A stretch of 64,000 bases of DNA. It comes from an uncultured Anaerolineales bacterium (GTDB taxonomy: Bacteria > Chloroflexota > Anaerolineae > B4-G1). A model generated the notes under the pieces. The model saw nothing but the letters and a program-made list of their open reading frames with translations, was not told the origin of the DNA and searched no databases. Shown piece after piece: positions 10,747 to 62,452 of this stretch. Every line of letters starts with the position of its first letter. The stretch's first letter is position 1. The stretch is from NCBI GenBank assembly GCA_964542755.1, contig CAZIWL010000001.1, positions 48,234 through 112,233 of the forward strand, read 5' to 3'. Both the position numbers and the translations under genes were made by a program.

Positions 10747-10760
10747 GGGGCAGTCACACG

Positions 10761-45466: not shown

Positions 45467-45471
45467 CGGCG

Positions 45472-47412
45472 ATGCGAGTCATAGGTACGGCCGGTCACGT
45501 CGACCATGGTAAGTCGGCACTCGTGCTCGCGTTAACGGGGATCGACCCCGACCGTCTACGGGAGGAGAAAGAACGCGGTCTGACCATCGATCTCGGGTTC
45601 GCCTGGTTCACCCTCCCGGGCGGCGAACCCGTTGGGGTGGTTGACGTGCCCGGGCACCGAGATTTCATAGAAAACATGCTGGCCGGCGTCGGCAGTATCG
45701 ATGCCACACTCTTCGTGGTAGCTGCTGATGAGAGCGTCATGCCGCAGACGCGCGAGCACCTGGCAATTCTGGATCTCCTGGAGATCGACACCGGCATCGT
45801 CGTCATCACCAAGACCGACCTGGTGGAGAGCGAGGAATGGCTGGAGTTGGTCGTCGACGATGTGGCCGAGACGTTGACGGGCACGGTACTCGAGGATGCT
45901 CCCGTCGTGCTGACCTCCGCACGGACAGGGCGCGGTCTGGATGAGCTGCTGAACGTTTTGGAACGCATCCTTGCCATCCCGCAACGTCACCCGGATCGTG
46001 GGCGTCCTCGATTACCTATCGATCGCGTCTTTACCGTCAGTGGTTTTGGCACGGTTGTCACGGGCACCCTGATCGACGGCATACTCGAGACCGGGCAGGA
46101 AGTCCGAGTCCAGCCTCAGGGTCTGAAGGCGCGCGTTCGGGGCCTCCAAACGCATAAGGAGAAGATCGATCGTGCGGTGCCCGGCAGCCGCGTGGCGGTC
46201 AACCTGAGTGGCGTGGACATGGATCAGGTCGCCCGGGGGGACGTCGTGGCGTCTGGCGATTGGCTGCAGGGCACGACGCTGGTGGACGTGCGGATGCGCT
46301 ATCTCCCCGACATCCTTTGGCCGGATCTGGGGCAGTTTGCTCAGCGGCCCCTCCGGCACAACACCCGACTTAAGTTCTACACCGGCGCCGCCGAGGTTAT
46401 GGGGCGAGTCAGGCTCCTTGGGCAGAACGCTCTCCTTCCAGAGCAGGTCGGTTGGGTCCAACTCGAACTCCAGGAGCCAATCGCTATGGTGCGCGGCGAT
46501 CACTATATCGTCCGGCTGCCGTCTCCGCCGACCACCGTAGGGGGCGGTATCATTGTCGATCCACAGCCGAGGCACAAGCACCGCCGCTTTCGATCCGTCG
46601 TGGTCGACCGCCTTGAGACGTTGGCTGAGGGAAGCCCCGCGGATATCCTGCTGCAGACACTGGAGCGAGAAGAGGTCGTATCCGTGGAGGACTTGCTGGA
46701 GATGGGCGGGCTTGAGGAGCGTGCCCCCAGCGCCCTGCTTGATCTCCTCGCTGAGGGACGCGCGCTCGTGCTCAACGATGAGCGTCCTGAGGGGATAAGA
46801 CTGACCGAGCTGCCCAGATCTGCTGGAGCCTTGATCGTCAGCCGTGCGAGGTGGTCATCCCTGATCGACCACATCCTTGATGCTCTTTCGTCTTACCACG
46901 AGAAGTTGCCGCTGCGACCGGGAATGCCTCGAGAGGCCCTGCGCAGCCGCCTCCAGCTCGCTCCACGGATCTTCGACGCGGTCGTGGCTCAAGCAGAGCG
47001 TGAAGGACTCATCGTCGACGAGGGAGCGTCGGTGCGGCTTTCGTCCCACACCGTTGAGTTGACGCCTCAGCAAGGGGAACGGGTGAGTGTGCTGCTGGAC
47101 CGTTTCCGACGGGATCCCTACGCCCCTCCCTCGGCCAAGGAGGCCACCGAGATGGTGGGGGAAGACGTCTACCGGGTGCTCATCTCCCGAGAGGACCTGG
47201 TGCAGGTCTCCCCGGATGTCGTCTTCCTGCCAGAGACGTACGATGTCATGGTTACGCGCATCCGGGCTCAGATCGAGCGAGAGGGCAGCGTCACGCTGGC
47301 CGAGGTGCGCGATATGTTCGACTCCAGCCGAAAGTATGCCCAGGCTATGCTGGAGCATCTGGATGAGCAAGGTGTGACGAAACGGATGGGGGACAAGCGA
47401 GTCCTGCGTTGA
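45472..47412 (+). CDS. selB: selenocysteine-specific elongation factor
   Basis: GTPase G1 GHVDHGKS, DxPGH, NKTD; EF-Tu-like domains II/III; C-terminal winged-helix extension; length 646 aa. Confidence 0.85.
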   Translation: MRVIGTAGHVDHGKSALVLALTGIDPDRLREEKERGLTIDLGFAWFTLPGGEPVGVVDVPGHRDFIENMLAGVGSIDATLFVVAADESVMPQTREHLAILDLLEIDTGIVVITKTDLVESEEWLELVVDDVAETLTGTVLEDAPVVLTSARTGRGLDELLNVLERILAIPQRHPDRGRPRLPIDRVFTVSGFGTVVTGTLIDGILETGQEVRVQPQGLKARVRGLQTHKEKIDRAVPGSRVAVNLSGVDMDQVARGDVVASGDWLQGTTLVDVRMRYLPDILWPDLGQFAQRPLRHNTRLKFYTGAAEVMGRVRLLGQNALLPEQVGWVQLELQEPIAMVRGDHYIVRLPSPPTTVGGGIIVDPQPRHKHRRFRSVVVDRLETLAEGSPADILLQTLEREEVVSVEDLLEMGGLEERAPSALLDLLAEGRALVLNDERPEGIRLTELPRSAGALIVSRARWSSLIDHILDALSSYHEKLPLRPGMPREALRSRLQLAPRIFDAVVAQAEREGLIVDEGASVRLSSHTVELTPQQGERVSVLLDRFRRDPYAPPSAKEATEMVGEDVYRVLISREDLVQVSPDVVFLPETYDVMVTRIRAQIEREGSVTLAEVRDMFDSSRKYAQAMLEHLDEQGVTKRMGDKRVLR

Positions 47413-47431: not shown

Positions 47432-48058
47432 GTGAGCCCGATCAAGCTGCTGGGTATCTCTGGGAGCCCACGACGGGGGGCGACGGCCTACGCGGTCCAG
47501 GAAGCGCTGGCCTATGCCGAAACCCTTGGCGACGTGGAGACGGAGTTTGTCTCGGTGCGCGGCAAAGAGATCAAGTTCTGCATCCACTGCGACTACTGTG
47601 TGCGGAAGAAGGAGGGCTGCGTCTTCGAAGATGATGTCGCCAAGATGTATCCCAGCATGGAGGAGGCCGACGCGTGGGTCCTCGGCACTCCTGTCTATCA
47701 GGGAACCATGTCGGGACAGCTGAAAGCTGTCCTTGATCGTTGTCGAGCCATTGTCGCCAGGGACATCGACGCGCTCAAGGACAAAGTTGGGGTGGGGATA
47801 GCCACGGGTGGCGATCGAGTTGGGGGCCAGGAGCCGGCCATCACGGCCATCCACGCCTTCTACCTGGCGAACAAGATGATCCCCATCAGTGGAGGGCCAT
47901 TCGGCGCAAATCTGGGCGGCACCATCTGGTCGCGCGACAAGAAGGGTGCGGGTGCCGAGGCTGACGAGGTCGGGATGGAGAGCGTCCGGCGGTCAGTCAA
48001 TCGTCTTGTTGAGGTGACCTCGACGATCAAGGGCTCGAAGTTGCATGACGATTCTTGA
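47432..48058 (+). CDS. NADPH-dependent FMN reductase / iron-sulfur flavoprotein-like
   Basis: Flavodoxin-like fold LLGISGSPRRG and a Cys cluster CIHCDYC. Confidence 0.7.
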   Translation: MSPIKLLGISGSPRRGATAYAVQEALAYAETLGDVETEFVSVRGKEIKFCIHCDYCVRKKEGCVFEDDVAKMYPSMEEADAWVLGTPVYQGTMSGQLKAVLDRCRAIVARDIDALKDKVGVGIATGGDRVGGQEPAITAIHAFYLANKMIPISGGPFGANLGGTIWSRDKKGAGAEADEVGMESVRRSVNRLVEVTSTIKGSKLHDDS

Positions 48059-48083
48059 CAGATGCCATCGTACAGTGTATAAT
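48055..48083 (+). promoter_or_regulatory. perfect consensus sigma70 promoter TTGACA-17-TATAAT (leader A)
   Basis: Exact hexamers with a 17-nt spacer; the -35 overlaps the TGA stop of the reductase gene. Confidence 0.6.
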
Positions 48084-48089
48084 AGAAAG

Positions 48090-48195
48090 CATAATTAGAA
48101 TAATCTGAGCTACCCTACGGATGGGATTGTGAAGCTGCCAAATATCCGTCACGACGCAGCTTAACTGCCGAATCATTTATGATTCGGCGTTTTTG
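48090..48195 (+). ncRNA. candidate structured leader or sRNA A of about 105 nt (conserved motif plus terminator), unclassified
   Basis: Predicted TSS, a motif GCTACCCTACGGATGGGATTGTGAAGCTGCC at 48109..48139 that is shared with leader B, and a terminator. Confidence 0.5.
48167..48194 (+). terminator. intrinsic terminator GCCGAATCA-TTTA-TGATTCGGC plus GTTTTT
   Basis: 9-bp perfect stem, 4-nt loop, U-tract. Confidence 0.8.
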
Positions 48196-48795
48196 GTCTT
48201 AGGGGCCAACCGGTCCGCCTAGGGGGCCAGCCTAGTAGCACATCTTCCACAACCGGGGCACCACGCGCCCCGCCGCGATAGAAGGTCAGCTCGTACCAGA
48301 ATCGTGGTACAGTCTGCTTGAGAGTTGATGCCGTTACGATGCTGTTGAGCCGTAGCCAGCAACTTGCCTTCCGGGTATATTGTCGATGCCAAAAAGGCGA
48401 TCTCGCGCTTTCTTGAGTCATTGGTGGGCTTCACCCGCAATAGGCTTCGTTTCGGCGCGATCGACCCGAAACCCGTTCTGTGACGCCGTGGCCAGTGGGG
48501 CCGTGAGGCCTACTCTCTAAACGCCGTCTATGCTCATACGAGTACTGGATGACCATCGGCTGTTCTTGTTGCACACCGTTAGCGGTCTACCGGCCTTCTC
48601 TGGCAATCGCCTGATCGCGCGCACCAACCTCTCTCAAGGTAGACGATACATTTACCGGCGGGGGGCTGTGCATCGCTGCGGGGTCCGGCAGAAGAAAGGG
48701 GGTGACGACTGAACCATTAGCCTGGATGTTGTATGCGTCTCCTACAGATAGGACAACACAGACGGATAGATCAGATTCCAAGGAGGAATACTCAG

Positions 48796-50328
48796 ATGTC
48801 GTTGTACGAGAAGATGGTGAACGAGGCCGTTGGCGCCGCAAAGTCGGTTCTTGGCGTCATAAGGGAGAAGCGTGGCGGGACCTTCAAGATCGCCGACGCA
48901 AAGCCATACGTCGATGCCGTCAACGCGATGGAGCCCGGTGACGGGCAGTCCAAAGAGGTCTTCGACCTGCACGTCGAGTCGGTGAATACCCACTACAACA
49001 CATTGATGGAGCTCACCGACACCATTCGCCCCGAAGACGACCCCTTCGTCGAGCACTACCAGACTCCGCCCATCCTGGAGATCCTCTACGAGGAGGACTC
49101 AGAGTTCAAGGACTCGATGTGGCAGTTCATCGACGCGGTCGCCGAGAACAAGTCCTTGATTGGGCTCGATGCGGTTCGTCGCTACGGCGGCATGTACGGC
49201 ATGACCTGTGTGGTCGACTTTGCCTTCTCTGTCGGATCGGTACCCAATACAGTCAACCGTATCCTCCGGGAGATGGACATTCCGAAGGAGCACAAGCAGA
49301 CAATCCTGGCTTCGAAGTCATGGGGGATGAACACCTCATACGGCTTTGGCGCAGCTTTCCGGGGGGCACTCGAGTCCGGCAAGACGGCAGCCGAGGCAGA
49401 GCAGGCCGAGGTTGACCAGATTCAGCACATCTACCGCGACCCGGTGGAGGCCCAGGCTGAACTGATGGACACCCACAACCTGGGTGGGCACGGTGGACAT
49501 ACCTCGTTCGACACCCGCAAGTACATGGCCCAGTACAAGGAGGCCATGCGACCTCACGTGGTGGCTGCTATGGAGGCGGGCGTGCATCCTGCCAACATCA
49601 CAGCCGTGCCCGCCTACTGCGTGGGTGACATTGGTCATCACATCGCCCAGTCCGCGTACAATATGTTCAAGGACGACATGTCCTTCGGCATCTACGAAGC
49701 AGTGATGGGCGTCTTCGAGAATACCATGCGCCGTGGCGTCGAGCAGGACGCCTATGGCAGCGAGTGGGACGTTCTGGCCGTGGCGACTGGTGCGCCCGCC
49801 TGTGCCGCCGCGTACATCCTCTGGCTGGACAGCTTCACTGTCCCCATGGTGATCGATCTGTTCAACAAACGGTTCCACAACTACTGCTCGATGCACCCGG
49901 ACCGCGGTGAGGCGGACGAGCTGCACAATGTCGACACCATCGACATCCTGATGCGCGGTGAGTCGATCCTAGAGCCGAAGCCGCGTGGTGCCGGTCGCAA
50001 GGTCAAGGGCATCGAGGTCGATCTCAGCCCGGTTGAAAACCACGAGGTCGTCATGAATCCGCAGCGTTACACCTATCCGGCGTGCGCCATCACCCAGCGC
50101 TTTGCGGCGTTGATGCATATGGCTGACTTCCCGTGCTACATGACGCCCGAGTGCGTAACGGCCACGTTGATGACCAATGCCGTGGCGCTCAATCCGGACC
50201 GCCCCGGCGCCCCGGTCAGGGGATGCAAGGACTGCGCTATCTGCACGCTGAACAAGCGCAACGCGCCTATGGCGACGGGCCGTCTGACGGGTGATCAGGG
50301 TTATTGCGAGTGGCACCTGGCGGTCTAG
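48796..50328 (+). CDS. uncharacterised 510-aa protein, paralogous to the 609-aa protein at 51767; C-terminal Cys-rich segment
   Basis: RBS AAGGAGG. A shared segment AAMEAGVHPANITAVPAY matches [19 protein letters not shown] in the paralog. No known family recognised. Confidence 0.75.
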   Translation: MSLYEKMVNEAVGAAKSVLGVIREKRGGTFKIADAKPYVDAVNAMEPGDGQSKEVFDLHVESVNTHYNTLMELTDTIRPEDDPFVEHYQTPPILEILYEEDSEFKDSMWQFIDAVAENKSLIGLDAVRRYGGMYGMTCVVDFAFSVGSVPNTVNRILREMDIPKEHKQTILASKSWGMNTSYGFGAAFRGALESGKTAAEAEQAEVDQIQHIYRDPVEAQAELMDTHNLGGHGGHTSFDTRKYMAQYKEAMRPHVVAAMEAGVHPANITAVPAYCVGDIGHHIAQSAYNMFKDDMSFGIYEAVMGVFENTMRRGVEQDAYGSEWDVLAVATGAPACAAAYILWLDSFTVPMVIDLFNKRFHNYCSMHPDRGEADELHNVDTIDILMRGESILEPKPRGAGRKVKGIEVDLSPVENHEVVMNPQRYTYPACAITQRFAALMHMADFPCYMTPECVTATLMTNAVALNPDRPGAPVRGCKDCAICTLNKRNAPMATGRLTGDQGYCEWHLAV

Positions 50329-50385
50329 TCGAGCGGTGTGTCTAACGTCGTAGATCAGTAGCCCTGCAGCATCGTATCCGTAAAG

Positions 50386-50426
50386 GAGCTCAGGGAGGGA
50401 GGACTGAATCCGCTCTCCCTGAGCTC
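50386..50426 (+). other. 12-bp perfect inverted repeat hairpin (GAGCTCAGGGAG/CTCCCTGAGCTC) after the 531-aa gene
   Basis: Seen in the sequence; it lacks a clean U-tract. Confidence 0.5.
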
Positions 50427-50450
50427 TTCATTATCCTAGAGAGGGACGCT

Positions 50451-50666
50451 ATGTCGCCGTGCATCAGCTGTGTGATATCGAGCCAAGACGAGTACGGTCA
50501 CGACAGGACCTGGCAGTCCAAATGGATAGACACACGCTGCCCAGTCTGCGGCACAGGGTTTGAGGTTGGCGATCACGTGCTAGTCGATGAGGATACGATA
50601 ACTGCGTATCATGTCGAGTGCTACGATGGTTCCGGGGCCGCGCTTGAGGAAGGCGTCGTCATCTAG
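50451..50666 (+). CDS. small zinc-ribbon-like Cys protein (71 aa)
   Basis: CxxC...CxxC spacing and an RBS GAGGG. Small-ORF caveat applies. Confidence 0.45.
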   Translation: MSPCISCVISSQDEYGHDRTWQSKWIDTRCPVCGTGFEVGDHVLVDEDTITAYHVECYDGSGAALEEGVVI

Positions 50667-50777
50667 GGCCGCGCTGGATAGATCCGGTGGGACACCGCCA
50701 CGAGAGCCAAGTGAAGCGCCGGTGATCGACCATGGGGCTCGTCGGTCGAGTTGTCTCGTCCTTATCAGGGAGCTAGC

Positions 50778-51344
50778 ATGTCCGAAAAGGTGAAGGTGGC
50801 GTGGGGAATCACGGGCGCCGGAGACTACCTCAGAGAGTCCCTGGACGCAATGAGAGACCTGACGCGGGACTTCGGCGTCGAGGTTACCGTTCTGCTCTCC
50901 ACGAACGGGGAGCTGGTGGTGAAATGGTACGATCTGTGGGATGACCTGAATGCGAGTTTCGACAAGGTTAGGTCAGAAAAGGGCCCCAACCTGCCGTTCT
51001 TGGCGGGGCCTCTTCAACTCGGCCATTATGCCTTCCTCTTTGTGTCGCCGGCGACAGGGAACACTGTGGCGAAGATCGCGTATGGAATAGCGGACAGCCT
51101 TGTCACCAACTGTGTCGCGCAGACGGTCAAGGGGGGCACGCCAGTCTTTGTCTATCCGGTTGATCAGGTGGCGGGCAGCCAGGAGACGGAAGGCCCTCGC
51201 GGGGAGAGAATCACCATCAGCACCAGACAGATCGATCTGGACAACGTCGAGAAACTCAAGGCCATGCCCGGCGTTGAGGTTCTGGGGCATCCGGGCCAGA
51301 TAAGCTCGGTAGTGAAGGACACGCTGTTTTCCGAGGTGTCCTGA
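50778..51344 (+). CDS. flavoprotein of the HFCD family (UbiX/PPCDC/AfpA-like)
   Basis: VAWGITGAGDY flavin-binding start and a ..PATGNTVAKIAYGIADSLVT.. motif; start at the internal ATG with RBS AGGGAG. Confidence 0.7.
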   Translation: MSEKVKVAWGITGAGDYLRESLDAMRDLTRDFGVEVTVLLSTNGELVVKWYDLWDDLNASFDKVRSEKGPNLPFLAGPLQLGHYAFLFVSPATGNTVAKIAYGIADSLVTNCVAQTVKGGTPVFVYPVDQVAGSQETEGPRGERITISTRQIDLDNVEKLKAMPGVEVLGHPGQISSVVKDTLFSEVS

Positions 51345-51421: not shown

Positions 51422-51450
51422 TTGACATAGTCTGCCTGCTTGTGTATAAT
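51422..51450 (+). promoter_or_regulatory. perfect consensus sigma70 promoter TTGACA-17-TATAAT (leader B)
   Basis: Exact hexamers; shares the GTGTATAATAG context with promoter A. Confidence 0.6.
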
Positions 51451-51456
51451 AGCTGA

Positions 51457-51637
51457 CACAAATCGTTTCGAGCCAGCTGAGTGCCGCATCTATCTTCACA
51501 GTCGTTGGCTTCCAACCGAATATCGCGAACCCGCGAATGGTGCTACCCTGCGGATGGGACTGCGAGGTTGTGAATGATCTGCCCTAGTACAACCGAGCTG
51601 CCGAGACTTTGGTCTCTGTGCAGCTCGGTTCTTTTTT
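51457..51637 (+). ncRNA. candidate structured leader or sRNA B (conserved motif plus terminator), paralog of A
   Basis: Motif GCTACCCTGCGGATGGGACTGCGAGGTTG at 51542..51570; a GGTTGT/ACAACC hairpin; a terminator; and 130 nt to the GTG start of the 609-aa gene. Confidence 0.5.
51593..51637 (+). terminator. intrinsic terminator CCGAGCTGC...GCAGCTCGG plus TTCTTTTTTT
   Basis: 9-bp outer stem plus 5-bp inner stem, with a long U-tract. Confidence 0.8.
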
Positions 51638-51766
51638 TGGGAGGTGATACCAGGACATACAGGTGGTCGTGGGGCGTTCGGCAGATAGAAGGATCGTTGT
51701 TGACGAGCATCCCTCGCTATGAGGGATCTTGGGGGCCACATATTCAGACTATCAGGAGGTACTGAC

Positions 51767-53548
51767 GTGGAGAAGGAAATCCTTGCAACAATCGCAGCTA
51801 TGACGTCCAACATCGAGTACACGACGAGTGACCGGATCGAGGCGCTTACCAAAGGTCACGGCATGCTCAACATCGCGGCACTCTGCGCAGAGAACGCGAT
51901 GACGTGGGAGGTCCTCCAGGGGCGAGATATCTCCCTGACGGATGCGAATATAGAGAAACTCCCGCTGGATCACGTCATTGAGGCTGGGGTCAACGCCGCC
52001 ATGGAGGCGGGCGCTTTCCCGGCCAACGCCGCTGTGATTACGGCGACGCTGCTCCTCATCGCCGGCACCTCCCCCCGCGCAGGTGTTCCCGCCGGCAACC
52101 GAAAGCTCGGCGCTCTGGCACGCATGAAGGCTGGAGCGGGCCGGACCGGCGTGGTGTCGATTCCGACATCGAAGCTTACCAACAAGCTCTCTGGCTTCGC
52201 GGCCGTCCAGGGCCTCTATAACGCCATGATGGACGGTAATGTGGTCCGCATCGACGGCGCCCACGTCCCCGCGTTCGTCGCCGGCGGCGCGCCTATGGGT
52301 CACAGTGTCCTCGGCGAGGATATGGTCTACCCGGACATCTGCCTGAAGGGTGGTAAGGCTGCCGTTGACGCCATGATGAAAGCCTACCGGGGGGCCGGCA
52401 TCAGTCCCAGCCCGATCCAGTGCGCTATCCTGGCCGCCGCTGCCGTTCTCGAGGTTGTCAACCCCGATGGTATGATCGGCGCTGAGTACGGCGACTTCTT
52501 CGTGCAGGGGACCGGGTACCTGGCCGGCAAGGGTGCTGCCGACGCCGCCGGTCTCCCCGAGAAGCTGCACTTGCGGGGCACGGGCGACGAGTACGACACG
52601 GCGAGTCTGGTTGGCGGAATGGGTATGATCCTCAAGGATGTCGGAGCCCCCTCGGTGATCGGCATGATGACGGTCAATGAGATCCTGGCCGCCTTCGCTG
52701 AAGGTCCGATGATCGGCGCCGGCTTCGGTGGCGGTCCGGTCAACCCCCCGTTGGCTCACCTGGCTGCCGACGGCGTCATCGCGATGAAGGCCCTGATGAA
52801 CAACAAGGGCGACGTTGAGGCCGCGGCCGATATGCTTCACGAAGTCAAGATGACCCAGTGGATCGACCCCGAGATTGCCGCTTTCTCCACAAACACCATC
52901 ACCCGGAAGGCGGAGCAGGTCCGCCGTGGTCCTGTGACCGAGACGATCATCAAGGCCACCGACGGGATCCGGACCAACGCTCTGCACCGCCGCGCCAAGT
53001 TCGCTTACGACCAGCTGAACGAGGGTAAGGACCTGAAAGAGATCTGCGGTGCGCTCGACCAGGCACGCAAGGCGCGGGTGGAGGAGAACGCCGGCAAGAT
53101 CCTCAGCGGCTTCTTCGGCAAGGACATCACCATCACATTCGACAAGCTCGAGGGTGGTGCCCGCCGCGACCATCCCTTCGCACAGGCCTTCTGGGGCTTC
53201 GACGCTGACATCGATGCGACGGTCACCGTCGACGGCGAGGTATTCGAGTTCGAGGGCCTCAGCCACACGGTCATCCCGGACGCTGTCTTGAATCAGAAGT
53301 CCGAGCTGTCGTTGCCGATCACGGTCGCTGCCGCGGTGGCCCAGGAGCTGATGTACGTGGGCTGCTGCACGATCGACGCCGTGGTCCCCGCTGTGGTGGC
53401 TGCCGCTATGGGTACGTACACCTGGAAGGACGCCGGTAAGAAGGCTGAGAAGGGCGCCAATATCACCTGCTCCATCCCTGGAGCGAAGAACACGGCCCGC
53501 GAGGCTGCCCGGCTGGCAATTCGGATCTTGCAGGACCTGGAGGGCTAG
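51767..53548 (+). CDS. uncharacterised 593-aa Gly/Ala-rich protein, paralog of 48796..50328
   Basis: GTG start with AGGAGG 7 nt upstream. Head of a run of overlapping genes to the window end. The 666-aa antisense ORF is rejected. Confidence 0.7.
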
Positions 53549-53552
53549 GCTT

Positions 53553-53623
53553 CCTGGTCCCAACACGTAGGGACCAGGCCATGGATCAGGTAGAGGGCAG
53601 GTGAGAAAGCTCTCTACCTGATC
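53553..53623 (+). other. two consecutive perfect hairpins (9-bp CCTGGTCCC/GGGACCAGG and 12-bp GATCAGGTAGAG/CTCTACCTGATC) in an intercistronic gap
   Basis: Seen in the sequence; no U-tracts. Confidence 0.5.
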
Positions 53624-53650
53624 TCCTCTGTCAGGGAAGGGGCCTCTGTC

Positions 53651-54169
53651 ATGCTGATTCTGGTAAATGTAGATGACGTCCCGGGCGAACTCCTCCCACA
53701 CGTCATCAGCGGTCTGATGGCGCGTGGAGCCGAGAACGTCCACGCCGTTCAATCGATTACCAAGAAGGGGCGGCTGGGCTATATGATCTTCGTCGACGCA
53801 CCATCCGAGAAGCTGAACGAGCTCGGCGGATTCCTCGCGTCCGAGGTAGGAACGATCGGCATGCGGGTGCTTGAGTCACGTCACGTTTGTTTCGACTATC
53901 GGGTGCGGAGCATGCGCCTGACGGCGGGCGAAGCCAGCGGGCAAACCCAAGCCATCATTCGCGTGAAGGAGGTCTACGACGACGAGCGGGTCGTTTCGGT
54001 CAAAGCTGAGTACGAGGACTTGCGGTCCGCCCTTGACCGATTTGAGGGTTCGGGTGTGAACACCTCGCTCGTTGCACTCAAGCGCCTTGTGGAAGAGGCG
54101 GCGTTGGGCCAGGCTCAGATAGATCATTCGGGCATTCGGATCGAGAGGGTTAGGGAGGTTTCCACGTGA
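53651..54169 (+). CDS. standalone LarC C-terminal-domain-like protein (DUF111 family, nucleotide-binding half)
   Basis: LILVNVDDVPGE...TKKGRLG...EVGTIGMRV matches the LETNIDDMSGE...MKKNRPG...TTTLGVR pattern of the nickel-pincer cofactor protein LarC. Confidence 0.55.
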   Translation: MLILVNVDDVPGELLPHVISGLMARGAENVHAVQSITKKGRLGYMIFVDAPSEKLNELGGFLASEVGTIGMRVLESRHVCFDYRVRSMRLTAGEASGQTQAIIRVKEVYDDERVVSVKAEYEDLRSALDRFEGSGVNTSLVALKRLVEEAALGQAQIDHSGIRIERVREVST

Positions 54170-55026
54170 AGAAAATTCTGGTGCAACTCGACAACGACGA
54201 ATCCGCGAGCGTCTTCGATACGGTAGCGGCCTACGATTCTGGCGTTGACAGTGTCCTCCAATATGCCAGTGTGGCACCGGAGGACGTGCAGAACCTGGTC
54301 TACGGGGCGATTTTCACTCGTGGACCGCAGGACTTGAAGAATTCCGCCGTGTTCATCGGGGGATCGGATGTCGCGGTTGGAGAGAAGATGCTGAAGATCG
54401 CTCAAGATTCCTTCATCGGGCCTCTGAAGGTCTCGGTGATGCTCGATGCCAACGGCTGCAATACTACAGCCGCTGCAGCCGTCGCTAAGATGCTCTCGTC
54501 GGCAGACCTCTCGGGGGAAAAAGTGGTCGTTCTGGCGGGAACGGGTCCCGTTGGGATACGGGCTGCAGCTCTCTTCGCCCAGGAGGGCGCGGAGGTTACA
54601 CTGACGTCACGGGATCAAGCGCGAGCGGAGGAGGCTGCGGCTTCCGTCAGCGCCCGGTTTGATGTGAAGGTTGCGGGTGTGGCAGCTGCGGAAGAAGAGG
54701 ACCTTCGTGCAGCCCTTGAGGGGGCACGCGGAGTACTCTCAGCCGGTGCCGCTGGTGTTACCCTGCTGCCGGAATCGGTCTGGATTGAGCACCCAACCCT
54801 TCAAGTGCTTGGCGACGTGAATGCGGTTCCACCCTTGGGCATAGAAGGCATCAAAGTCCACTGGAAGGCCAAGGAGAAGCATGGCAAGATCATCTACGGT
54901 GCCATCGGTATAGGCGACTTCAAGATGAAGGTCCATCATGCCAGTGTTGCTCGCCTCTTCGAGCAGAACGACTTGGTCCTGGATGCCGAAGAGGTGTACG
55001 CGACAGCGAAAGAACTGTCGAGCTAG
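54166..55026 (+). CDS. mtdA: NAD(P)-dependent methylene-tetrahydromethanopterin/tetrahydrofolate dehydrogenase
   Basis: GTGA overlap with the upstream gene and RBS AGGGAGG. About 286 aa. Motifs FDTVAAYD, DANGCNTTAAAAV and VVLAGTGPVG resemble Methylobacterium MtdA. Confidence 0.75.
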   Translation: MKKILVQLDNDESASVFDTVAAYDSGVDSVLQYASVAPEDVQNLVYGAIFTRGPQDLKNSAVFIGGSDVAVGEKMLKIAQDSFIGPLKVSVMLDANGCNTTAAAAVAKMLSSADLSGEKVVVLAGTGPVGIRAAALFAQEGAEVTLTSRDQARAEEAAASVSARFDVKVAGVAAAEEEDLRAALEGARGVLSAGAAGVTLLPESVWIEHPTLQVLGDVNAVPPLGIEGIKVHWKAKEKHGKIIYGAIGIGDFKMKVHHASVARLFEQNDLVLDAEEVYATAKELSS

Positions 55027-56210
55027 TGCGCGTTCTCATCGTCGGCCTTAGCACTCGAGCGATCGCCCAGTCCGCGTACGAGGCCGGCCATGACATCGTG
55101 ACGCTCGACTACTTTGGAGACAGCGACCAGCGAGCTCTCGTAGAGAACCACTCCCTGCTCCGCGACTACGATCTGGCATACGGCCCTGAAGCGTTGGTCC
55201 GGGTAGGCCGGGAGCTGGATGCTCAAGCCGTCGTCTACACCGCGGGCTTGGAGAATGATCCTTGGGCGGTTGCGGACCTGGCGGAGGGCCGAACACTTCT
55301 CGGAAACGAGCCCGATGTCCTCTGCCAGGTCCGCAACTGGGATGTCCTACGGGGATTCTTCCGGGACGCAGGGATCGGCTTTGCAGAGACACTTCTGCCG
55401 GGCGAGGAAGGATTGGCAGAGCACTGTGAGCGCTGGGTTCGCAAGCCGGTTCGGAGCGGAGGCGGTCGCGACGTTGACTACTGGGACGGCAGCGCGCTAG
55501 CCTGTCATCAGATTCTGCAGGCCTACGTCGATGGCGTTCCGGCGTCAGCTGCCTTTGTCGCCGACGGCGAGGATAGCCTCGTTATCGGCGTGACCGAGCA
55601 GTTGATCGGGCGTGAGGAGCTGGGAGCCGCCGGTTTCGCCTGGTGCGGCAATATGGTACCCTTGGAGCTTGCAAAGGCTGACCGGGAGATTGTGTGGCAC
55701 GACATCGCCACTGCCGTCTCGCGCTTGACGAAGCACTTCGGCCTACGGGGAGTGAACGGTGTGGACTTCGTCCTTCACCGGTGTGCTGATGGGCGTCCGC
55801 AGCCGGTTGTCGTGGAGGTTAACCCTCGCTACACGGCCTCGATGGAGCTTTTCGAATCGGCGTACGACGAGAGCATTTTCTCTCTCCACGTTGAGGCTGT
55901 GAAGGGTCATCTGCCAACCAGCCAGGATCAAGCACGCTGGAAACGGACGGATGGTTACCTCGGCAAGGCAATCGTCTTCGCAAAGCGGCCCGTGACCATG
56001 CCCGACACCGGGGGCTGGTTTGGCCTGGGCAGGCACGACGTGCCGCATACTGGGGAGCGGATAGAGGCCGGACATCCCGTATGCACGGTGTTCGCGCGGG
56101 GTGACGGACGTCGTGGTTGTTGGAGCGGTCTCCTGGAGGCGGCTGAAAGTGTACGTCGCGAAATTGGAGACCAGATTGGAGGAGTGACTTGGACGCAACG
56201 TTCAAGCTAG
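55026..56210 (+). CDS. ATP-grasp ligase (MptN- or MfnD-like, H4MPT or methanofuran biosynthesis)
   Basis: ATP-grasp fold in a C1-cofactor context; GTG start overlapping the mtdA stop. Confidence 0.55.
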   Translation: MRVLIVGLSTRAIAQSAYEAGHDIVTLDYFGDSDQRALVENHSLLRDYDLAYGPEALVRVGRELDAQAVVYTAGLENDPWAVADLAEGRTLLGNEPDVLCQVRNWDVLRGFFRDAGIGFAETLLPGEEGLAEHCERWVRKPVRSGGGRDVDYWDGSALACHQILQAYVDGVPASAAFVADGEDSLVIGVTEQLIGREELGAAGFAWCGNMVPLELAKADREIVWHDIATAVSRLTKHFGLRGVNGVDFVLHRCADGRPQPVVVEVNPRYTASMELFESAYDESIFSLHVEAVKGHLPTSQDQARWKRTDGYLGKAIVFAKRPVTMPDTGGWFGLGRHDVPHTGERIEAGHPVCTVFARGDGRRGCWSGLLEAAESVRREIGDQIGGVTWTQRSS

Positions 56211-56551
56211 TAACTGGGCGAACGCGCAGCCAGGCTGATGGGCTGCACAAAGGCAAGGGCACCGAAGCCTATCGACAGGCGACGGAACGCGTGGAGATGA
56301 ATCAGGGCGACATGGGTGCCTTGGGCCTCAACGAGGGGTCTACCGTGCATCTACGGACGGATGCTGGGAGCGTCGATGTGATGGTTTACCAGGGCGAGCT
56401 CCCGTCCGGTCTCCTGTTCATGCCGCTGGGTCCTGCGGCAAACCGTCTCATCGGCGTCGAGACGGACGCCACGGGCACCCCCCGCTACAAGGATCTTCCT
56501 GTCATCGTAGAGCGGTCGGTCCGGGAAGGAGAAGCGGCAAGCGATGGCTAA
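56189..56551 (+). CDS. formylmethanofuran dehydrogenase subunit D-like protein (small beta-barrel subunit)
   Basis: TTG start with GGAGGAG RBS; KLVTGRT..Q N-terminus typical of FwdD/FmdD. Confidence 0.65.
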   Translation: MDATFKLVTGRTRSQADGLHKGKGTEAYRQATERVEMNQGDMGALGLNEGSTVHLRTDAGSVDVMVYQGELPSGLLFMPLGPAANRLIGVETDATGTPRYKDLPVIVERSVREGEAASDG

Positions 56552-57818
56552 GGTAGTGGAGAACGCCGTCTGCACGTTCTGCGGTTGTCTATGTGACGAC
56601 ATCACTGTGGAGGTCGAGGGCAACGCCGTAAGCCAGGTCCGTCGCACGTGCGCCAATGGCCGAGGCGTCTTCATGCACTACGACCCTGCGCCCCGACAGC
56701 CAACTGTCCGCGGCGAGGAGGTCACCTGGGGCGAGGCAGTCGAGGAGGCGGCGACAATCCTCTCGGAGGCCCATAGTCCCCTGATCTATGGGCTCAGTTC
56801 GACGGCTAGCGAAGCCCAGCGGAAGTGCGTTGCGCTGGCCGACTACCTGGGCGCCGTGATCGACACAACGTCTTCGGTCTGTCACGGCCCTACCGGACTG
56901 GCGATGCAGGCCGTGGGTGAACCCACTTGCACCCTGGGCGAGGTGCGGAACCGCGCAGACCTGCTCGTCTTCTGGGGCTGCAATCCGGCGGCCGCCCACA
57001 TGCGCCACTTCAACCGGTACTCGGTTACCGCCCGCGGGCGACTTACACCGAACGGGAAGAGGGACCGGACGACCGTGGTGGTCGATGTCCGCCCGACGGC
57101 CAGCACGCGGATAGCCGATCAGTTCCTCCAAGTTGAGCTTGGAAGTGACTTTGAGGTGCTGACTACCCTGTTGGCCTTCGTCCAGGGCAAGGGGGACAGG
57201 CTCACGGCGGAGGAGGTCGGTGGAGTGCCCATGGCGGAGCTGGAAGCACTGGCCGAGCACATGATGAGCTGCCGGTTCGGGGTGGCCTTCATGGGTATGG
57301 GGTTGACCCACACCCCGGGCCAGGACTTGACCGTGAGCGAGTTGTTCAAGCTGGTTGCAGCCCTGAACGACCACACCCGATTCTCCGTGATTCCGATGCG
57401 CGGACATGGCAATGTCGCCGGTGCGGACCAGGTGATGAGCTGGCAGTGCGGTTATCCGTTTGCGGTCAATTTCGCCCGAGGGTATCCGGTTTATGGGCCC
57501 GGGGAGTTCACGGCGGTCGACGTGCTCGCCCGCCAGGAGGCGGACGCCGCTTTGATTCTGGCCTCTGATCCCGTTGCCCATTTCCCACGCAGGGCGGCTG
57601 ATGAATTGGGGAAGATACCGGTCGTGGTCCTAGACCCGATGCCGAGTCTGACGACTGAGATAGCCTCGGTTGTCTTCCCCACGGCGTGCTACGGGGTAGA
57701 GGCGAAGGGTACGGCCTACCGCATGGACGGCGTACCCATTCAGCTACGGGCGGTGCTGCCGACCACCCGTCCGACCGATGAGGAGATCCTGGATCAGATT
57801 ACTGAGGCGGTGAGATGA
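56544..57818 (+). CDS. fhcB: formyltransferase/hydrolase complex subunit B (FwdB homolog)
   Basis: CTFCGCLCDD N-terminal motif and a molybdopterin-oxidoreductase-like fold. Confidence 0.8.
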   Translation: MAKVVENAVCTFCGCLCDDITVEVEGNAVSQVRRTCANGRGVFMHYDPAPRQPTVRGEEVTWGEAVEEAATILSEAHSPLIYGLSSTASEAQRKCVALADYLGAVIDTTSSVCHGPTGLAMQAVGEPTCTLGEVRNRADLLVFWGCNPAAAHMRHFNRYSVTARGRLTPNGKRDRTTVVVDVRPTASTRIADQFLQVELGSDFEVLTTLLAFVQGKGDRLTAEEVGGVPMAELEALAEHMMSCRFGVAFMGMGLTHTPGQDLTVSELFKLVAALNDHTRFSVIPMRGHGNVAGADQVMSWQCGYPFAVNFARGYPVYGPGEFTAVDVLARQEADAALILASDPVAHFPRRAADELGKIPVVVLDPMPSLTTEIASVVFPTACYGVEAKGTAYRMDGVPIQLRAVLPTTRPTDEEILDQITEAVR

Positions 57819-59455
57819 TGTTGGGGATTTTGAACGGGCGCGTTTACGATCCGATCCACGAGGTTGATGGGGAGGTGCAGGATGTGTGGATGGACGACGG
57901 GAAAATCGTCCCTCCCCCCGCAACCGAGGAGGCGAGACGCCAGGCCAGGACCATCGACGCTACAGGCCTCGTCGTTATGGCCGGAGGCGTGGACGTTCAC
58001 AGCCACATCGCGGGCGCCAAGGTCAATGCCGGCCGAAAGTTCCGGCCGGAGGACCACCGCGACCACGTCCGCGCGCGCACCCCTCTGACGCGCTCTGGCG
58101 CGGGCTACACCACACCGACCACGGCGATGATGGGCTACCTCTACGCCGAGATGGGTTACACGACCGTGATGGAGGCCGCGACGGCCCCACTGGTGGCGCG
58201 TCACACTCATGAGGAGCTGGAGGACATACCGATTCTGGACACCGGGGCCTATATCACCATGGGCAACAATCACTTCATCATGGAGTCCATACGCCGCGGG
58301 GAACGGGAGAAGGCTAGGGACTACGTGGCATGGCTGTTGCGGGCGACGAAGGGATATGCGATCAAGATCGTCAATCCCGGCGGTGTCGAGAACTGGAAGT
58401 GGCGCGGCAACGTCAAGGAACTGGACGACGAGGTGATTGGTTTCGAGGTCACCCCGCGTCAGATTCTGGAGACGCTCGCCTGGGTCAACGATGAGCTAGG
58501 CCTGCCGCACGTCCCGCATATCCACGGCCTCAATCTGGGGCAGGGTGGCAACGCCCGCACGACGGTCGAGACGATCAGGGCCCTCGACGGGCGCCCGTGC
58601 CACTTCTGCCATCTGCAGTTTTTGAGCTATGAGGGAGAACCCGATACGTTGCCCCGCTCGGGGGCGGTACAGGTGGCTCAAGCGGTCAACGAGCATAGGA
58701 ACGTTACGATCGACGTGGGACAGGTCGTCTTTGGTTCTGCCACCACAATGACGTCCGACGGCCCTCTCCAGTACCATCTCCACCGGCTCACGGGGGACAA
58801 GTGGCTCAACGATGATGTGGAGGCCGAGACCGGCGGTGGCCTCGTGCCAATGGAGTACGCGCCGAGGAACGCCGCCAACGCAACCCAGTGGGCCACAGGC
58901 CTGGAGTTGTTCCTGCTCATTGATGATCCCTGGCGGGTCTTCCTGACCACCGATCATCCCAACGCCGGTCCTTTCTTCCGTTATCCTTACGTCATCAAGC
59001 TGCTCATGGATCGTCAGGCACGCGCAGAAGCTTTCGAAGAGATCAGCCCCAGGGTCCGGAAGCGCTCGACTCTCGGGCAGCTGGAGCGAGAGTATTCGCT
59101 CTATGAGATCGCCATCATTACTCGGGCTGGTACTGCGCGCGCCCTGGGTCTGGACAACAAGGGGCACCTGGGCGTCGGTGCGGACGCTGATGTGGCTGTC
59201 TATGTCGACTTGGATGATCGGGAGGAGATGTTTGCGTCGCCGCGGTACGTGATCAAGGATGGGGAGATCGTCGTCCAGGATGGCAAGGTGGTGCGCGAGC
59301 AGCAGGGCCGAACCCTCTACGTTGAGCCTGCGTACGATCGCGGCATAGAGAAAGAGCTGCGGGATTACTTCCGGGACTACTACACCATCCAGTTCGATAA
59401 CTACCCGGTGTCACCTGACTATGTGCCCCGCGGGGAGGTCGTCGCGTGTCGCTAG
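57815..59455 (+). CDS. fhcA: formyltransferase/hydrolase complex subunit A (FwdA homolog, amidohydrolase)
   Basis: ATGA overlap; amidohydrolase metal motifs GGVDVHSHI...HIHGLNLGQGG. Confidence 0.8.
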   Translation: MMLGILNGRVYDPIHEVDGEVQDVWMDDGKIVPPPATEEARRQARTIDATGLVVMAGGVDVHSHIAGAKVNAGRKFRPEDHRDHVRARTPLTRSGAGYTTPTTAMMGYLYAEMGYTTVMEAATAPLVARHTHEELEDIPILDTGAYITMGNNHFIMESIRRGEREKARDYVAWLLRATKGYAIKIVNPGGVENWKWRGNVKELDDEVIGFEVTPRQILETLAWVNDELGLPHVPHIHGLNLGQGGNARTTVETIRALDGRPCHFCHLQFLSYEGEPDTLPRSGAVQVAQAVNEHRNVTIDVGQVVFGSATTMTSDGPLQYHLHRLTGDKWLNDDVEAETGGGLVPMEYAPRNAANATQWATGLELFLLIDDPWRVFLTTDHPNAGPFFRYPYVIKLLMDRQARAEAFEEISPRVRKRSTLGQLEREYSLYEIAIITRAGTARALGLDNKGHLGVGADADVAVYVDLDDREEMFASPRYVIKDGEIVVQDGKVVREQQGRTLYVEPAYDRGIEKELRDYFRDYYTIQFDNYPVSPDYVPRGEVVACR

Positions 59456-59491: not shown

Positions 59492-60862
59492 ATGCGAGGG
59501 CCGGCGGTTTCCGGCCGAGGCGTCGTGGCTGATTACCTCTTCGTCACAGGCAAGCTGGCCGCCGACGCGCTCCGGGATACGTTGGAGGGAATGGAGCCGG
59601 GATTCGACTATCGGATCGAGGAGCTTCCCCTCTCCGTGGCAGCCCTGATGCACGCCGGCTGGATCGCCCGGCACCTGGATGGAGCCCGTGGGTGCGACAA
59701 GGTCATGCTCAGCGGCTGGGTGCAGGGCGACCTTGCGGTGATCGAGGAGAAGGTCGGCGTCCCGGTGATCCTGGGCCCCAAGGACCTCAAGGATATTCCC
59801 GTTTTCTTCGGCGGCGAGCGCGTGCTTCCAGGGTACGGCGAATATGATGTGCAGATCCTGGCCGAGATCGTCGAGGCCTACCAGATGTCGTGGGAGGATG
59901 TCCTGGCCCGGGCCGAGTACTTCCGGGACAGCGGCGCGGATGTCATCGACCTGGGCTGCCCGGTGGGGATGGATGAGGGATTCCCCGGTGTGGGCGGGGT
60001 CGTCCGTCAGCTGAAGGCGCACGGTTTCACGGTCAGTCTGGACACCTTTCACCACGAGACCATCCGCCGCGCTGATGAGGCCGGGCTTGATATGCTCCTC
60101 AGCGTGAATAGCACAAACATGCATCTGGTGCCGGAGCTGGACTGCCGAGTGGTCGTCATACCGGATTTCGACCAGGGTTTGGAATCGCTCGAGCGCAATA
60201 TTGCCCAGCTTGAGGCTTGGGGCGTATCCTATATCATCGATCCCATCGTCAATCCCATCAATTTCGGCTTTGCCGAGTGCTTGCAGCGGTTCTACGAGAC
60301 ACGTCGACGCCACCCGGATGCCGAGATGCTAATGGGGGTGGCGAATCTCGTGGAGCTGACCGACGCCGACAGCACGGGCGTCAACGCTGTCATGGCTGGT
60401 TTTGTCCAGGAGCTGGGTATCGACTACGTCCTGATGACCGAGGTGATCAGCTGGGCGCGGGGCGCCGTCCGCGAGTTCGACCTGGCGCGGAAGCTGATGC
60501 ATTACGCCGCCCGGAACAACGTGCTGCCCAAGCACGTGGACGATGGCCTGATCACGGTCAAGGACCCGCCCTATGAGCCCTATACGGAGCCCGAGCTCCG
60601 GGTCATGCAGAAGCGGGTGCGCGACAAGAACCTCCGAATCTTCGTGACCGAGGACGCCATATGCATTTTCGACCGCTCCCGATTCGTTCAGGGCACCGAT
60701 CCGCAGGCACTCTTCGACCAACTGGAGATTCGGGACGGAGGGCACGGTTTCTACGTCGGCCGTGAACTCGAGCGGGCGGCCCTGGCGCTCCGACTTGGCA
60801 AGAAGTACACCCAGGAGATGCCCCTACGGTGGGGCTACCTCTCCGACGGCTGGGGTGAATGA
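59492..60862 (+). CDS. dihydropteroate-synthase-like protein of H4MPT biosynthesis (archaeal MJ0301-type)
   Basis: Pterin-binding TIM-barrel-like core (DVIDLGC, GFTVSLDTFH) plus a C-terminal extension. Start is uncertain; GTG alternatives lie downstream. Confidence 0.6.
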   Translation: MRGPAVSGRGVVADYLFVTGKLAADALRDTLEGMEPGFDYRIEELPLSVAALMHAGWIARHLDGARGCDKVMLSGWVQGDLAVIEEKVGVPVILGPKDLKDIPVFFGGERVLPGYGEYDVQILAEIVEAYQMSWEDVLARAEYFRDSGADVIDLGCPVGMDEGFPGVGGVVRQLKAHGFTVSLDTFHHETIRRADEAGLDMLLSVNSTNMHLVPELDCRVVVIPDFDQGLESLERNIAQLEAWGVSYIIDPIVNPINFGFAECLQRFYETRRRHPDAEMLMGVANLVELTDADSTGVNAVMAGFVQELGIDYVLMTEVISWARGAVREFDLARKLMHYAARNNVLPKHVDDGLITVKDPPYEPYTEPELRVMQKRVRDKNLRIFVTEDAICIFDRSRFVQGTDPQALFDQLEIRDGGHGFYVGRELERAALALRLGKKYTQEMPLRWGYLSDGWGE

Positions 60863-62374: not shown

Positions 62375-62452
62375 TAGTACTCATCGTGTATGGTGTGCCC
62401 GTCGAGTTCAATGGGCAAAGAGGCCGTAGACTGGGATTGGAGATGGAGTAGG

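Follow-up and report, generated by a model that had tools for sequence, protein, structure and literature searches.

LarA is the nickel-pincer lactate racemase, and in lar operons (larA-larB-larC-larE with a nickel transporter and regulator) the genes are grouped around this one large 'client' protein. LarC is the cytidine triphosphate (CTP)-dependent nickel cyclometallase, in which the LarC1 domain's cluster of histidines and its acidic pocket are essential for nickel insertion and the LarC2 domain binds CTP and is the site of CMPylation of P2TMN (PMC13510736). About 15% of genomes contain larBCE without larA (PMC11796402), and proteins unlike LarA that depend on the nickel-pincer nucleotide (NPN) are expected by the field (PMC11796402, PMC13524815). 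The first nickel-pincer examples other than LarA were reported in 2026, some aldo-keto-reductase (AKR)-family proteins among them (PMC13524815). The present work deals with a stretch of 64,000 nucleotides (the window) from an uncultured Anaerolineales bacterium of the Chloroflexota (assembly GCA_964542755.1, contig CAZIWL010000001.1, positions 48,234 to 112,233), in which a gene on the forward strand (53651-54169) encodes a standalone LarC2-like protein, here called LarC2L, directly downstream of the gene for a large conserved protein, here called X593. It appears fairly probable that LarC2L is a dedicated CTP-dependent LarC2-type module for X593, that X593 is a candidate nickel-pincer-binding or nickel-pincer-using protein, and that both are co-transcribed here with a tetrahydromethanopterin (H4MPT)/methanofuran one-carbon (C1) module.

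The closest solved relative of LarC2L is MK0293 of Methanopyrus kandleri (3C19), a structural-genomics protein of uncharacterized function with a structure available since 2008. MK0293 is also standalone (about 180 amino acids), and its match to LarC2L extends to residue 155 with the extra C-terminal helix included, but identity is only about 24% and in a neighbor-joining tree MK0293 takes an intermediate position, with the LarC2L clade on one side and the canonical LarC2 domains on the other. For X593, the nearest precedent is a matter of gene context. NphT, an AKR-family nickel-pincer enzyme, was found through its adjacency to larBCE (PMC13524815), and the same kind of inference is drawn here for X593. 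NphT, however, has a TIM-barrel fold, belongs to a known superfamily of large size and is biochemically characterised, whereas X593 is an orphan, mainly helical protein known here from its sequence and model.

The assignment of LarC2L to the LarC2 type rests on several comparisons. The Pfam family Ni_insertion (PF01969) matches with an E-value of 3e-21 and 76.4 bits (gathering cut-off 22.1), but only over profile positions 248-363 of 375, which is the C-terminal LarC2 part, and the NCBIfam model nickel_LarC2 (NF052512) matches with 72.2 bits (cut-off 50). No LarC1 domain was detected in the protein by the Pfam scan. A profile built from 27 family members (alignment A1) retrieved 3C19 (E 2.7e-12), the full-length LarC 12bi of M. 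thermoacetica (8.6e-6) and the L. plantarum LarC2 structure 6bwo (3e-5) from the PDB sequences. The AlphaFold2 model (predicted local distance difference test (pLDDT) score 87.9) yielded exactly three Foldseek matches in the PDB at E < 1e-3, namely 3C19 (4.8e-8), the CTP-bound LarC2 6BWQ_B (2.5e-7; TM 0.47/0.55) and 6BWO_A (1e-6); all others had E > 1.9e-3, with ACT-type regulatory domains coming next. The preliminary description of this gene, which had proposed a LarC2-type product and a comparison with the LarC structure 6BWO, is thus borne out by profiles and fold alike. The LarC2 domain itself is not new, as NCBIfam and Pfam already recognise the protein as LarC2-type.

Compared with the LarC2 domain of LarC, LarC2L has the same fold (Foldseek probability 1.0) and aligns collinearly over the whole domain with LarC from Methanosarcinaceae, M. 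thermoacetica and L. plantarum. Residues 1-127 correspond to the LarC2 domain, a ferredoxin-like core with a beta-hairpin arm. The motifs N-x-DD-x-GE, GA, KKGR, TGTLG-R and KAEYED ((K/S)AEYED when both groups are considered) are kept with respect to canonical LarC2 and are invariant within the family; they are presumed to form the CTP/metal site. By position, the invariant residues of the LarC2L family include N6, D8, E13, T37-K38-K39-G40-R41, D49, E65, G67, G70, R72, H78, K106, K118-A119-E120 and E148. In contrast to LarC, LarC2L is standalone and without LarC1 domain or linker, it forms its own clade and adjoins X593, and it has family-specific residues (His31, Thr37, Asp49, His78), a hairpin insertion of 4-6 residues and a C-terminal tail of about 45 residues (residues ~128-172) with helical and beta structure. 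At least 77 homologs of equal length are found, with 25 invariant residues. LarC2L and its homologs begin alike with MLILVNVDD, and the sequence upstream of the ATG reads GGGAAGGGG.

A genome scan with the LarC2L profile identified 38 loci, 36 of them with upstream sequence. The bacterial loci belong to Anaerolineales, Desulfobacteraceae, Desulfovibrionaceae, Dethiosulfatarculus, Syntrophobacteraceae, Synergistaceae, Thermovirgaceae, Acetomicrobium and Halanaerobiales, and the archaeal ones to Methanosarcina, Methanolobus, Promethearchaeota and one unclassified archaeon; the closest named relatives of the window locus are Anaerolineales metagenome-assembled genomes (MAGs). X593 was encoded directly upstream of LarC2L in all 36 informative loci. 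As a control for bias, 80 metagenome loci anchored on X593 were analysed, and among the 72 with at least 650 bp of downstream sequence, 70 contained, on the strand of X593, an open reading frame (ORF) with a LarC2 domain that starts less than 700 bp downstream. In one of the two loci without it, LarC2-LarB-LarC1 directly precedes X593. From these adjacencies (36/36 and 70/72), the conserved unit is X593 together with a LarC2 module and not LarC2L together with mtdA, and the position of the pair is conserved in more than 100 loci across Bacteria and Archaea.

This finding changes the relationship to the downstream gene. The preliminary description had regarded LarC2L as translationally coupled to mtdA, and the TGA of LarC2L (54167-54169) does overlap the GTG of the mtdA-like gene (54166-54168), but the overlap is unconserved even in close relatives and the constant partner is X593. 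Its further suggestion that the protein serves neighbouring unknown proteins was essentially correct, given the fixed place of X593. About half of the LarC2L-anchored loci have the series mtdA - ATP-grasp - fwdDBA after the pair, with at least three different arrangements among them. C1 genes (mtdA/fwd) are absent near the pair in Methanosarcinaceae (Methanosarcina, Methanolobus), Halanaerobiales, Acetomicrobium and Desulfovibrionaceae, and the neighbourhoods in Methanosarcina sp. T3, Acetomicrobium and Desulfovibrionaceae give no functional clue. In a Halanaerobium locus (L035, 5381-14052), the pair is flanked on one side by a phosphotransferase system permease (EIIC-GAT) and a class II aldolase, and on the other by a GGDEF protein and an iron-containing alcohol dehydrogenase. 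Such a sugar or sugar-acid context without C1 genes hints that the substrate of X593 need not be a C1 compound.

X593 is a protein without annotated family. The assigned GTG start at 51767 has a perfect AGGAGG 8 nucleotides upstream, while the listed ORF begins at the ATG at 51719. Homologs have 591-620 amino acids and are all named 'hypothetical protein' except for one Joint Genome Institute (JGI) label 'methylthioribose-1-phosphate isomerase', which found no support here. Two JGI metagenome contigs carry an X593 100% identical to the window copy. No Pfam domain was found in X593 or its homologs, an exhaustive HMMER search of 1.84 billion representatives revealed no relatives outside the family itself (about 17 full-length clusters, no wider superfamily), and searches of the PDB sequences with the single sequence and with a profile gave no match. 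The AlphaFold2 model has a pLDDT of 91 and a predicted template modelling (pTM) score of 0.91 and consists mainly of helices, with a small beta domain formed by residues 454-496. Foldseek found nothing for this model at E <= 1e-3, the best TM-score being 0.15, and homology to the known NPN-binding folds (LarA, AKR/NphT) was not detected.

Across loci, X593 is the more conserved of the two proteins, with 42-84% identity as compared to 32-67% for LarC2L. In an alignment of 55 sequences (A2), N111-R112-K113, K136, H179, H331, K361, R466-R467, W476, D479 and Q526-E527 are invariant, as are many Arg, Asp and Asn residues and a Gly-rich loop, F320-G-G-G-P-x-N-x-P. The protein appears soluble and has no conserved Cys. 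Together, its solubility, the invariant Lys, His, Arg, Asp and Asn residues, the Gly-rich loop and the lack of conserved Cys fit an enzyme binding a ligand of an anionic, nucleotide-like kind. Next to X593, flavoproteins and Fe-S proteins are encoded repeatedly, such as flavin mononucleotide (FMN) reductase (the window, L001, L007, L027, L033), AfpA, PNPOx with ferredoxin (L052), a DHODB-type electron-transfer subunit (L049) and a pyridine-nucleotide-disulfide oxidoreductase (L030), which suggests that X593 may be involved in redox chemistry.

Several other assignments for X593 were considered and rejected. A short BLAST match to DUF2193 (E 0.038) had raised the idea that the two are paralogues, but the hhalign probability was 1.9%; for a divergent LarC1, it was 0.1%. 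A membrane protein, as some of the weak fold matches are transporters, does not agree with a grand average of hydropathy of 0.14 and two marginal hydrophobic windows. A 666-amino-acid ORF on the opposite strand (51752-53752) is spurious, as the forward-strand product is conserved and confidently modelled; it is an artefact of GC-rich coding DNA, and its counterparts in other loci are 'conserved' solely via X593.

The link to nickel-pincer chemistry comes from the gene neighbourhoods in other genomes. All-against-all clustering of the ORFs of the loci showed a recurrent neighbour of about 260 amino acids to be LarB (NF033503, 232-307 bits). Genes of the lar group were present in 13 of the 38 LarC2L-anchored and in 24 of the 80 X593-anchored loci, many of which are on short contigs. 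This context takes at least eight arrangements in Bacteria and Archaea, none of them in the window itself. In Desulfobacteraceae, the order is LarE-LarB-LarC1-X593-LarC2L-MtdA-FwdDBA (L015) or LarB-LarC1-X593-LarC2L (L017), with a LarC1 of 244-285 amino acids that has no LarC2 domain. LarB-LarC1-X593-LarC2L is also found in Synergistaceae and Thermovirgaceae (Synergistota), and four loci (L026, L112, L117, L124) have LarE and an additional canonical standalone LarC2 on the opposite strand. Methanosarcinaceae show X593-LarC2L-LarB-full LarC, and an Asgard MAG shows X593-LarC2L-LarB. In a more distant case (L052, X593 38% identical to that of the window), PNPOx, an unassigned gene, X593, ferredoxin, another unassigned gene, LarC2L, a histidine kinase, a response regulator, LarB and LarC1 follow each other, and L091 and L120 have LarC2-LarB-LarC1-X593. 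Around the pair of a Thermoleophilia-type contig (L048, 9332-15372), a nickel regulator and a nickel/cobalt transporter of the energy-coupling-factor type (CbiMNQO-type) are encoded, with NikR, CbiQ and the ABC ATPase CbiO on one strand and X593-LarC2L-LarB-LarC1-CbiM(N) on the other, where CbiM carries PDGLE and the LarC1 gene is LarC1-only.

No match to the LarA family was found in the loci with precomputed Pfam tables. X593 sits where LarA sits in lar operons, in the same neighbourhood logic around one large 'client' protein, and for this reason most likely represents a new enzyme class that receives or uses the nickel-pincer nucleotide cofactor. In the window, Pfam scans of about 45 ORFs and tblastn with LarB, LarC and LarC1 found no larA, larB, larE or larC1, in agreement with the preliminary description, which had reported LarB, LarE and LarA to be missing nearby. 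The impression of a gene detached from the nickel-pincer pathway has, however, to be given up, as LarB, LarE and LarC1 flank the pair in many other genomes.

Some side observations concern the same clusters. An aldo-keto-reductase-like protein and an FMN reductase are encoded just upstream of X593-LarC2L-LarB-LarC in Methanolobus vulcani (L033, 6156-8063) and also in L044 (14827-16023), where the former is fused to a 4Fe-4S dicluster domain. A gene for a protein similar to beta-ribofuranosylaminobenzene 5'-phosphate (beta-RFAP) synthase, of the GHMP family, adjoins LarB in L087 (1083-2243) and L017 (3927-5045, reverse strand). The leader RNA described below is followed in L087 and L102 first by this gene and then by LarB-LarC1-X593-LarC2L, so that a methanopterin-type enzyme is tied to lar genes.

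A further connection is provided by an RNA element in the 5' leader of X593. The sigma-70 promoter of the X593 operon stands about 310 nucleotides before the X593 start and has, immediately before its -10, the TG of an extended -10; equivalent promoters lie 240-390 nucleotides upstream of X593 in relatives. The leader contains a conserved element made up of a 5' motif, the pseudoknot of P1 and P2, and an intrinsic terminator (5'-GCUACCCU-[GCGGAU]-GGGACYGCGA-[GGYUG]...[AUCYGC]...[CARCC]GAGCUGCC...-3', followed by the terminator stem and U-run). A covariance model (R1), built from six sequences and searched against 1.2 Mb of related loci, found 29 copies, all in sense orientation, with E-values from 1e-29 to 4e-4. 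P1 and P2 are 94.4% paired with 8 of 11 pairs compensatory, as compared to 19-46% in slid controls and 0 of 500 shuffles as good, and the terminator reaches 91.7% pairing, with compensatory changes in 7 of its 11 pairs. The window thus contains two leaders (51540-51640 and 48107-48199) with a conserved, covarying structure and an expression platform.

Sixteen of the 29 copies precede X593-LarC2L, 10 precede DUF2193 (followed by a Zn-ribbon-like protein, FMN reductase and AfpA), and three precede operons with LarB-LarC1 (L087, L102 and L015, where the copy is weak with 22 bits). The leader RNA therefore ties the two unexplained gene groups of the window together and, in relatives, connects them to lar genes. 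In L093, two leader RNAs stand in tandem (2394-2494 and 2529-2629) before a DUF2193 gene; a tandem arrangement is known in some riboswitch classes. P2 shares part of its 3' strand with the terminator's 5' arm, a layout that has the logic of an anti-terminator and makes the leader RNA a candidate new riboswitch. As in pseudoknotted riboswitches with a terminator platform, a conserved core, covarying helices and a competing terminator arm are found in the 5' leaders of related operons; in contrast to these, there is no match in Rfam 15 even at E <= 10, and protein binding or another attenuation mechanism is possible. No known RNA family was found by Rfam in the leaders and intergenic regions.

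The spacer of 102 nucleotides between X593 and LarC2L has RNA structure as well. Comparable long GC-rich hairpins of unrelated sequence occupy the same spacer in 16 bacterial loci. The hairpins probably act within the operon on the processing or stability of the mRNA and would thereby uncouple the expression of X593 and LarC2L, which fits an abundant enzyme (X593) accompanied by a low-level accessory or maturation factor (LarC2L).

One way to explain the pair without nickel would be to regard LarC2L as a nucleotide-binding subunit of X593, either an activator (e.g., a cytidylyltransferase) or a regulator, with X593 acting in H4MPT/methanofuran-linked C1 metabolism or in methanopterin/methanofuran biosynthesis and the LarC2 chemistry, in which CMP is transferred to a phosphate monoester, borrowed for another substrate. 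This is judged rather unlikely, although the window itself would suit it. No lar genes are present here or in any Anaerolineales-type locus examined, about half of the LarC2L-anchored loci have the pair at the head of an mtdA - ATP-grasp - fwdDBA operon, methanopterin biosynthesis genes (DHPS-like, beta-RFAP-synthase-like, AfpA) are near, and the common leader RNA is also found before a beta-RFAP-synthase-like gene. In Halanaerobium, Acetomicrobium, Desulfovibrionaceae and Methanosarcina, however, the pair occurs without C1 or methanopterin genes, and the adjacency to LarB, LarE and LarC1 across phyla, once together with NikR and a CbiMNQO-type transporter, is hard to explain otherwise than by nickel-pincer chemistry. 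A regulatory subunit might also be read from the ACT-type domains that follow LarC2 among the structural matches, but these are weak (E > 1.9e-3) compared to LarC2 and MK0293 (1e-6 to 5e-8).

Another explanation is an ordinary split LarC; the preliminary description had spoken of a split LarC2-like protein. LarC2L would then be the LarC2 half of a two-gene LarC producing standard NPN, and this NPN would go to an enzyme, LarA-type or other, whose gene lies elsewhere. X593 would be an unrelated passenger or would assist in making or delivering the cofactor, for instance as a LarC1-LarC2 scaffold or by handling nickel or sulfur. In L. plantarum, separate reading frames encode LarC1 and LarC2 (PMC13510736), NCBIfam would label the protein LarC2, and in Desulfobacteraceae, Synergistaceae, L048 and L052 a LarC1 without LarC2 domain is accompanied by LarC2L as the sole LarC2 within +/-10 kb. 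Yet Methanosarcinaceae contain LarC2L besides a complete LarC, and the Thermovirgaceae-type loci L026, L112, L117 and L124 contain it besides a canonical standalone LarC2. In the neighbor-joining tree LarC2L forms its own clade nearest MK0293, and it remains beside X593 whereas LarC1 shifts its position between loci. X593, moreover, is conserved above LarC2L, has about 600 amino acids and contains many invariant polar residues, which would be expected of a catalytic protein, and the spacer hairpin agrees with high expression of an enzyme and low expression of the maturation factor encoded behind it. A simply split LarC2 is thus improbable.

Methanogens in which X593 is followed by a full-length LarC provide a further argument. 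In Methanothrix (L045/L046, 9851-11074) and Methanofollis ethanolicus (L047, 9851-11044), the gene for such a LarC comes directly after X593, and in Methanofollis the X593 stop overlaps its start. The LarC2 halves score 131.7 and 128.4 bits and are strongly canonical, whereas the LarC1 halves reach 97.9 and 58.5 bits (cut-off 90; canonical about 190-227) and the SGDM and HFHEVG-xx-D-xxx-D (His/acidic) motifs of LarC1 are lost or deleted. These proteins are probably no nickel insertases on their own. With the LarC1 half degenerate and the LarC2 half canonical, the function retained beside X593 would be that of LarC2. Taken together with the coexistence with LarC or LarC2, the separate clade and the fixed place by X593, the best-supported explanation is that LarC2L is a specialised paralogue and more than the missing half of LarC. 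The proposal that LarC2L is a decaying larC remnant or a chance ORF, for which the missing lar genes in the window and the spurious 666-amino-acid ORF in GC-rich DNA might speak, is effectively refuted by conservation: at least 77 homologs of the same length, 25 invariant residues, a confident AlphaFold2 model and more than 100 loci.

If LarC2L is the dedicated module of X593, LarB and LarE encoded elsewhere in the genome would make P2TMN, and LarC2L would bind CTP through its N-x-DD-x-GE, T-KKGR and KAEYED motifs and CMPylate this precursor. Nickel might be inserted by a LarC1-type protein or by X593 itself, and the cofactor, possibly in a cytidine-dinucleotide form, would end in X593. X593 could then perform a hydride-transfer or other redox reaction, aided by the flavoprotein and Fe-S neighbours, and this reaction would be wired transcriptionally to the H4MPT/methanofuran C1 module (mtdA, fwdDBA, ftr) in the window organism.

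Some observations weigh against the assignment of X593 as a nickel-pincer protein served by LarC2L. No larB, larE or larC1 was found at any Anaerolineales-type locus examined (in the window over 53 kb on the upstream and 10 kb on the downstream side, at the other loci over +/-10 kb), and the LarC1 that the canonical LarC cyclometallase requires is present neither in LarC2L nor within the 64-kb window. No LarC2 gene follows X593 in L049, an Archaeoglobus-like short contig, or in L101. The LarC2L clade is taken from a neighbor-joining tree without support values, and X593 could be a biosynthetic accessory and not the user of the cofactor.

A wider picture can be drawn, which as a whole is plausible but has less than an even chance. 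X593 would be a new nickel-pincer enzyme class without a solved fold relative, distributed widely among methanogens, Asgard archaea and anaerobic bacteria; a LarC2 paralogue of its own would load it with the cofactor, which may be a cytidine dinucleotide, the LarC1 half being dispensable or degenerate; X593 would feed or drain the H4MPT/methanofuran C1 pathway in Chloroflexota, Desulfobacterota and Synergistota; and the X593-LarC2L pair, the DUF2193/flavoprotein operon and lar genes would be under a previously undescribed riboswitch. That the finding marks a categorically new nickel-pincer enzyme has a substantial chance, if one below one half.

X593, a highly conserved orphan, is a concrete and easily testable candidate for the cofactor user in nickel-pincer genomes without LarA, and is encoded by Methanosarcina, Methanothrix, Methanomicrobiales and Asgard archaea as well as in several anaerobic phyla of bacteria. 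If the assignment is true, it would introduce a protein fold that is new to organometallic nickel biochemistry, bring nickel-pincer chemistry into methanogens and H4MPT-linked C1 metabolism, give a function to the MK0293 structural-genomics family, and bear on the mechanism of LarC, as the CTP-dependent LarC2 step could run apart from LarC1. The ligand of the leader RNA could reveal what the X593/DUF2193/lar system senses. In a literature search, no description was found of the near-obligate X593-LarC2L pairing, of its lar/nickel clusters in both prokaryotic domains, of the degenerate LarC1 beside X593 in some methanogens, of the X593 fold or of the common leader RNA.

The positions of the pair, its RNA elements and the neighbouring genes are compiled in Table 1.

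Table 1. Genes and RNA or promoter elements in and around the X593-LarC2L operon (window coordinates).
Feature	Position	Strand	Evidence or remark
FMN reductase / iron-sulfur-flavoprotein-like	47432..48058	+	PF03358 113 bits
Leader RNA copy 2, upstream of DUF2193 operon	48107..48199	+	R1 50.2 bits, E 2e-14
DUF2193 protein	48733..50328	+	PF09959 749 bits
71-aa protein with paired CxxC/CxxH-like motifs	50451..50666	+	69-73% identity in L001, L007, L057
AfpA-type archaeoflavoprotein	50751..51344	+	TIGR02699 208.9 bits (cut-off 192)
Sigma-70 promoter of X593 operon	51422..51450	+	TTGACA-17-TATAAT, 12/12 consensus
Leader RNA copy 1, X593 5' leader	51540..51640	+	Covariance model R1, 92.8 bits
X593, conserved protein without annotated family, LarC2L partner	51767..53548	+	593 aa, GTG start
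X593/LarC2L spacer, two strong GC-rich hairpins, no U-tract	53549..53650	+	-58 kcal/mol, z = -3.4
LarC2L, standalone LarC2-like protein of MK0293-like clade	53651..54169	+	172 aa; HMM, PDB profile, AlphaFold2/Foldseek
MtdA/MtdC-type methylene-H4MPT dehydrogenase	54166..55026	+	PF09176 (Mpt_N) 110.8 bits and Rossmann domain
ATP-grasp protein	55026-56210	+	Same operon, overlapping starts/stops
FwdD	56189-56551	+	Formylmethanofuran dehydrogenase / formyltransferase-hydrolase subunit type
FwdB	56544-57818	+	Formylmethanofuran dehydrogenase / formyltransferase-hydrolase type subunit
FwdA	57815-59455	+	Formylmethanofuran dehydrogenase / formyltransferase-hydrolase type subunit
DHPS-like protein, methanopterin-related	59492-60862	+	HMM scans
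GHMP-family protein, methanopterin-related	61406-62374	+	HMM scans
Ftr	62390-63346	+	HMM scans

Downstream of the pair, matches to Fwd subunits were obtained with TIGR03129 (536 bits) and TIGR03121 (750 bits) for ORFs within 55026..59455. The H4MPT/methanofuran module is known in Chloroflexi, Synergistetes and Deltaproteobacteria, and the X593/LarC2L pair is unmentioned there (PMC5020050).

Upstream, DUF2193 starts about 530 nucleotides downstream of leader copy 2 and is, from the common leader RNA, probably co-regulated with X593. The DUF2193 family binds a [4Fe-4S] cluster (PMC12375889), and the association with X593 together with the common leader RNA may provide a functional context for it. 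The small protein with CxxC/CxxH-like motifs is conserved downstream of DUF2193, and the FMN reductase recurs beside X593 or DUF2193 in L001, L007, L027 and L033. The AfpA family includes dihydromethanopterin reductase. The block from FMN reductase to AfpA (47432-51344, with DUF2193 and the 71-amino-acid protein) recurs together with X593 in Anaerolineales and, in another order, in a deltaproteobacterial MAG.

Immediately before this block lies the gene for SelB, the selenocysteine-specific elongation factor (45472-47412, + strand), preceded in the region 44249-47412 by a forward-strand ORF of 405 amino acids that has no Pfam match at E 1e-5. Farther upstream, seven large genes of about 590-850 amino acids each are arranged in tandem on the forward strand (8662-25659). 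The seventh (23599-25659) has no Pfam match, and the other six encode apparent paralogues with PMT_2/PMT glycosyltransferase domains.

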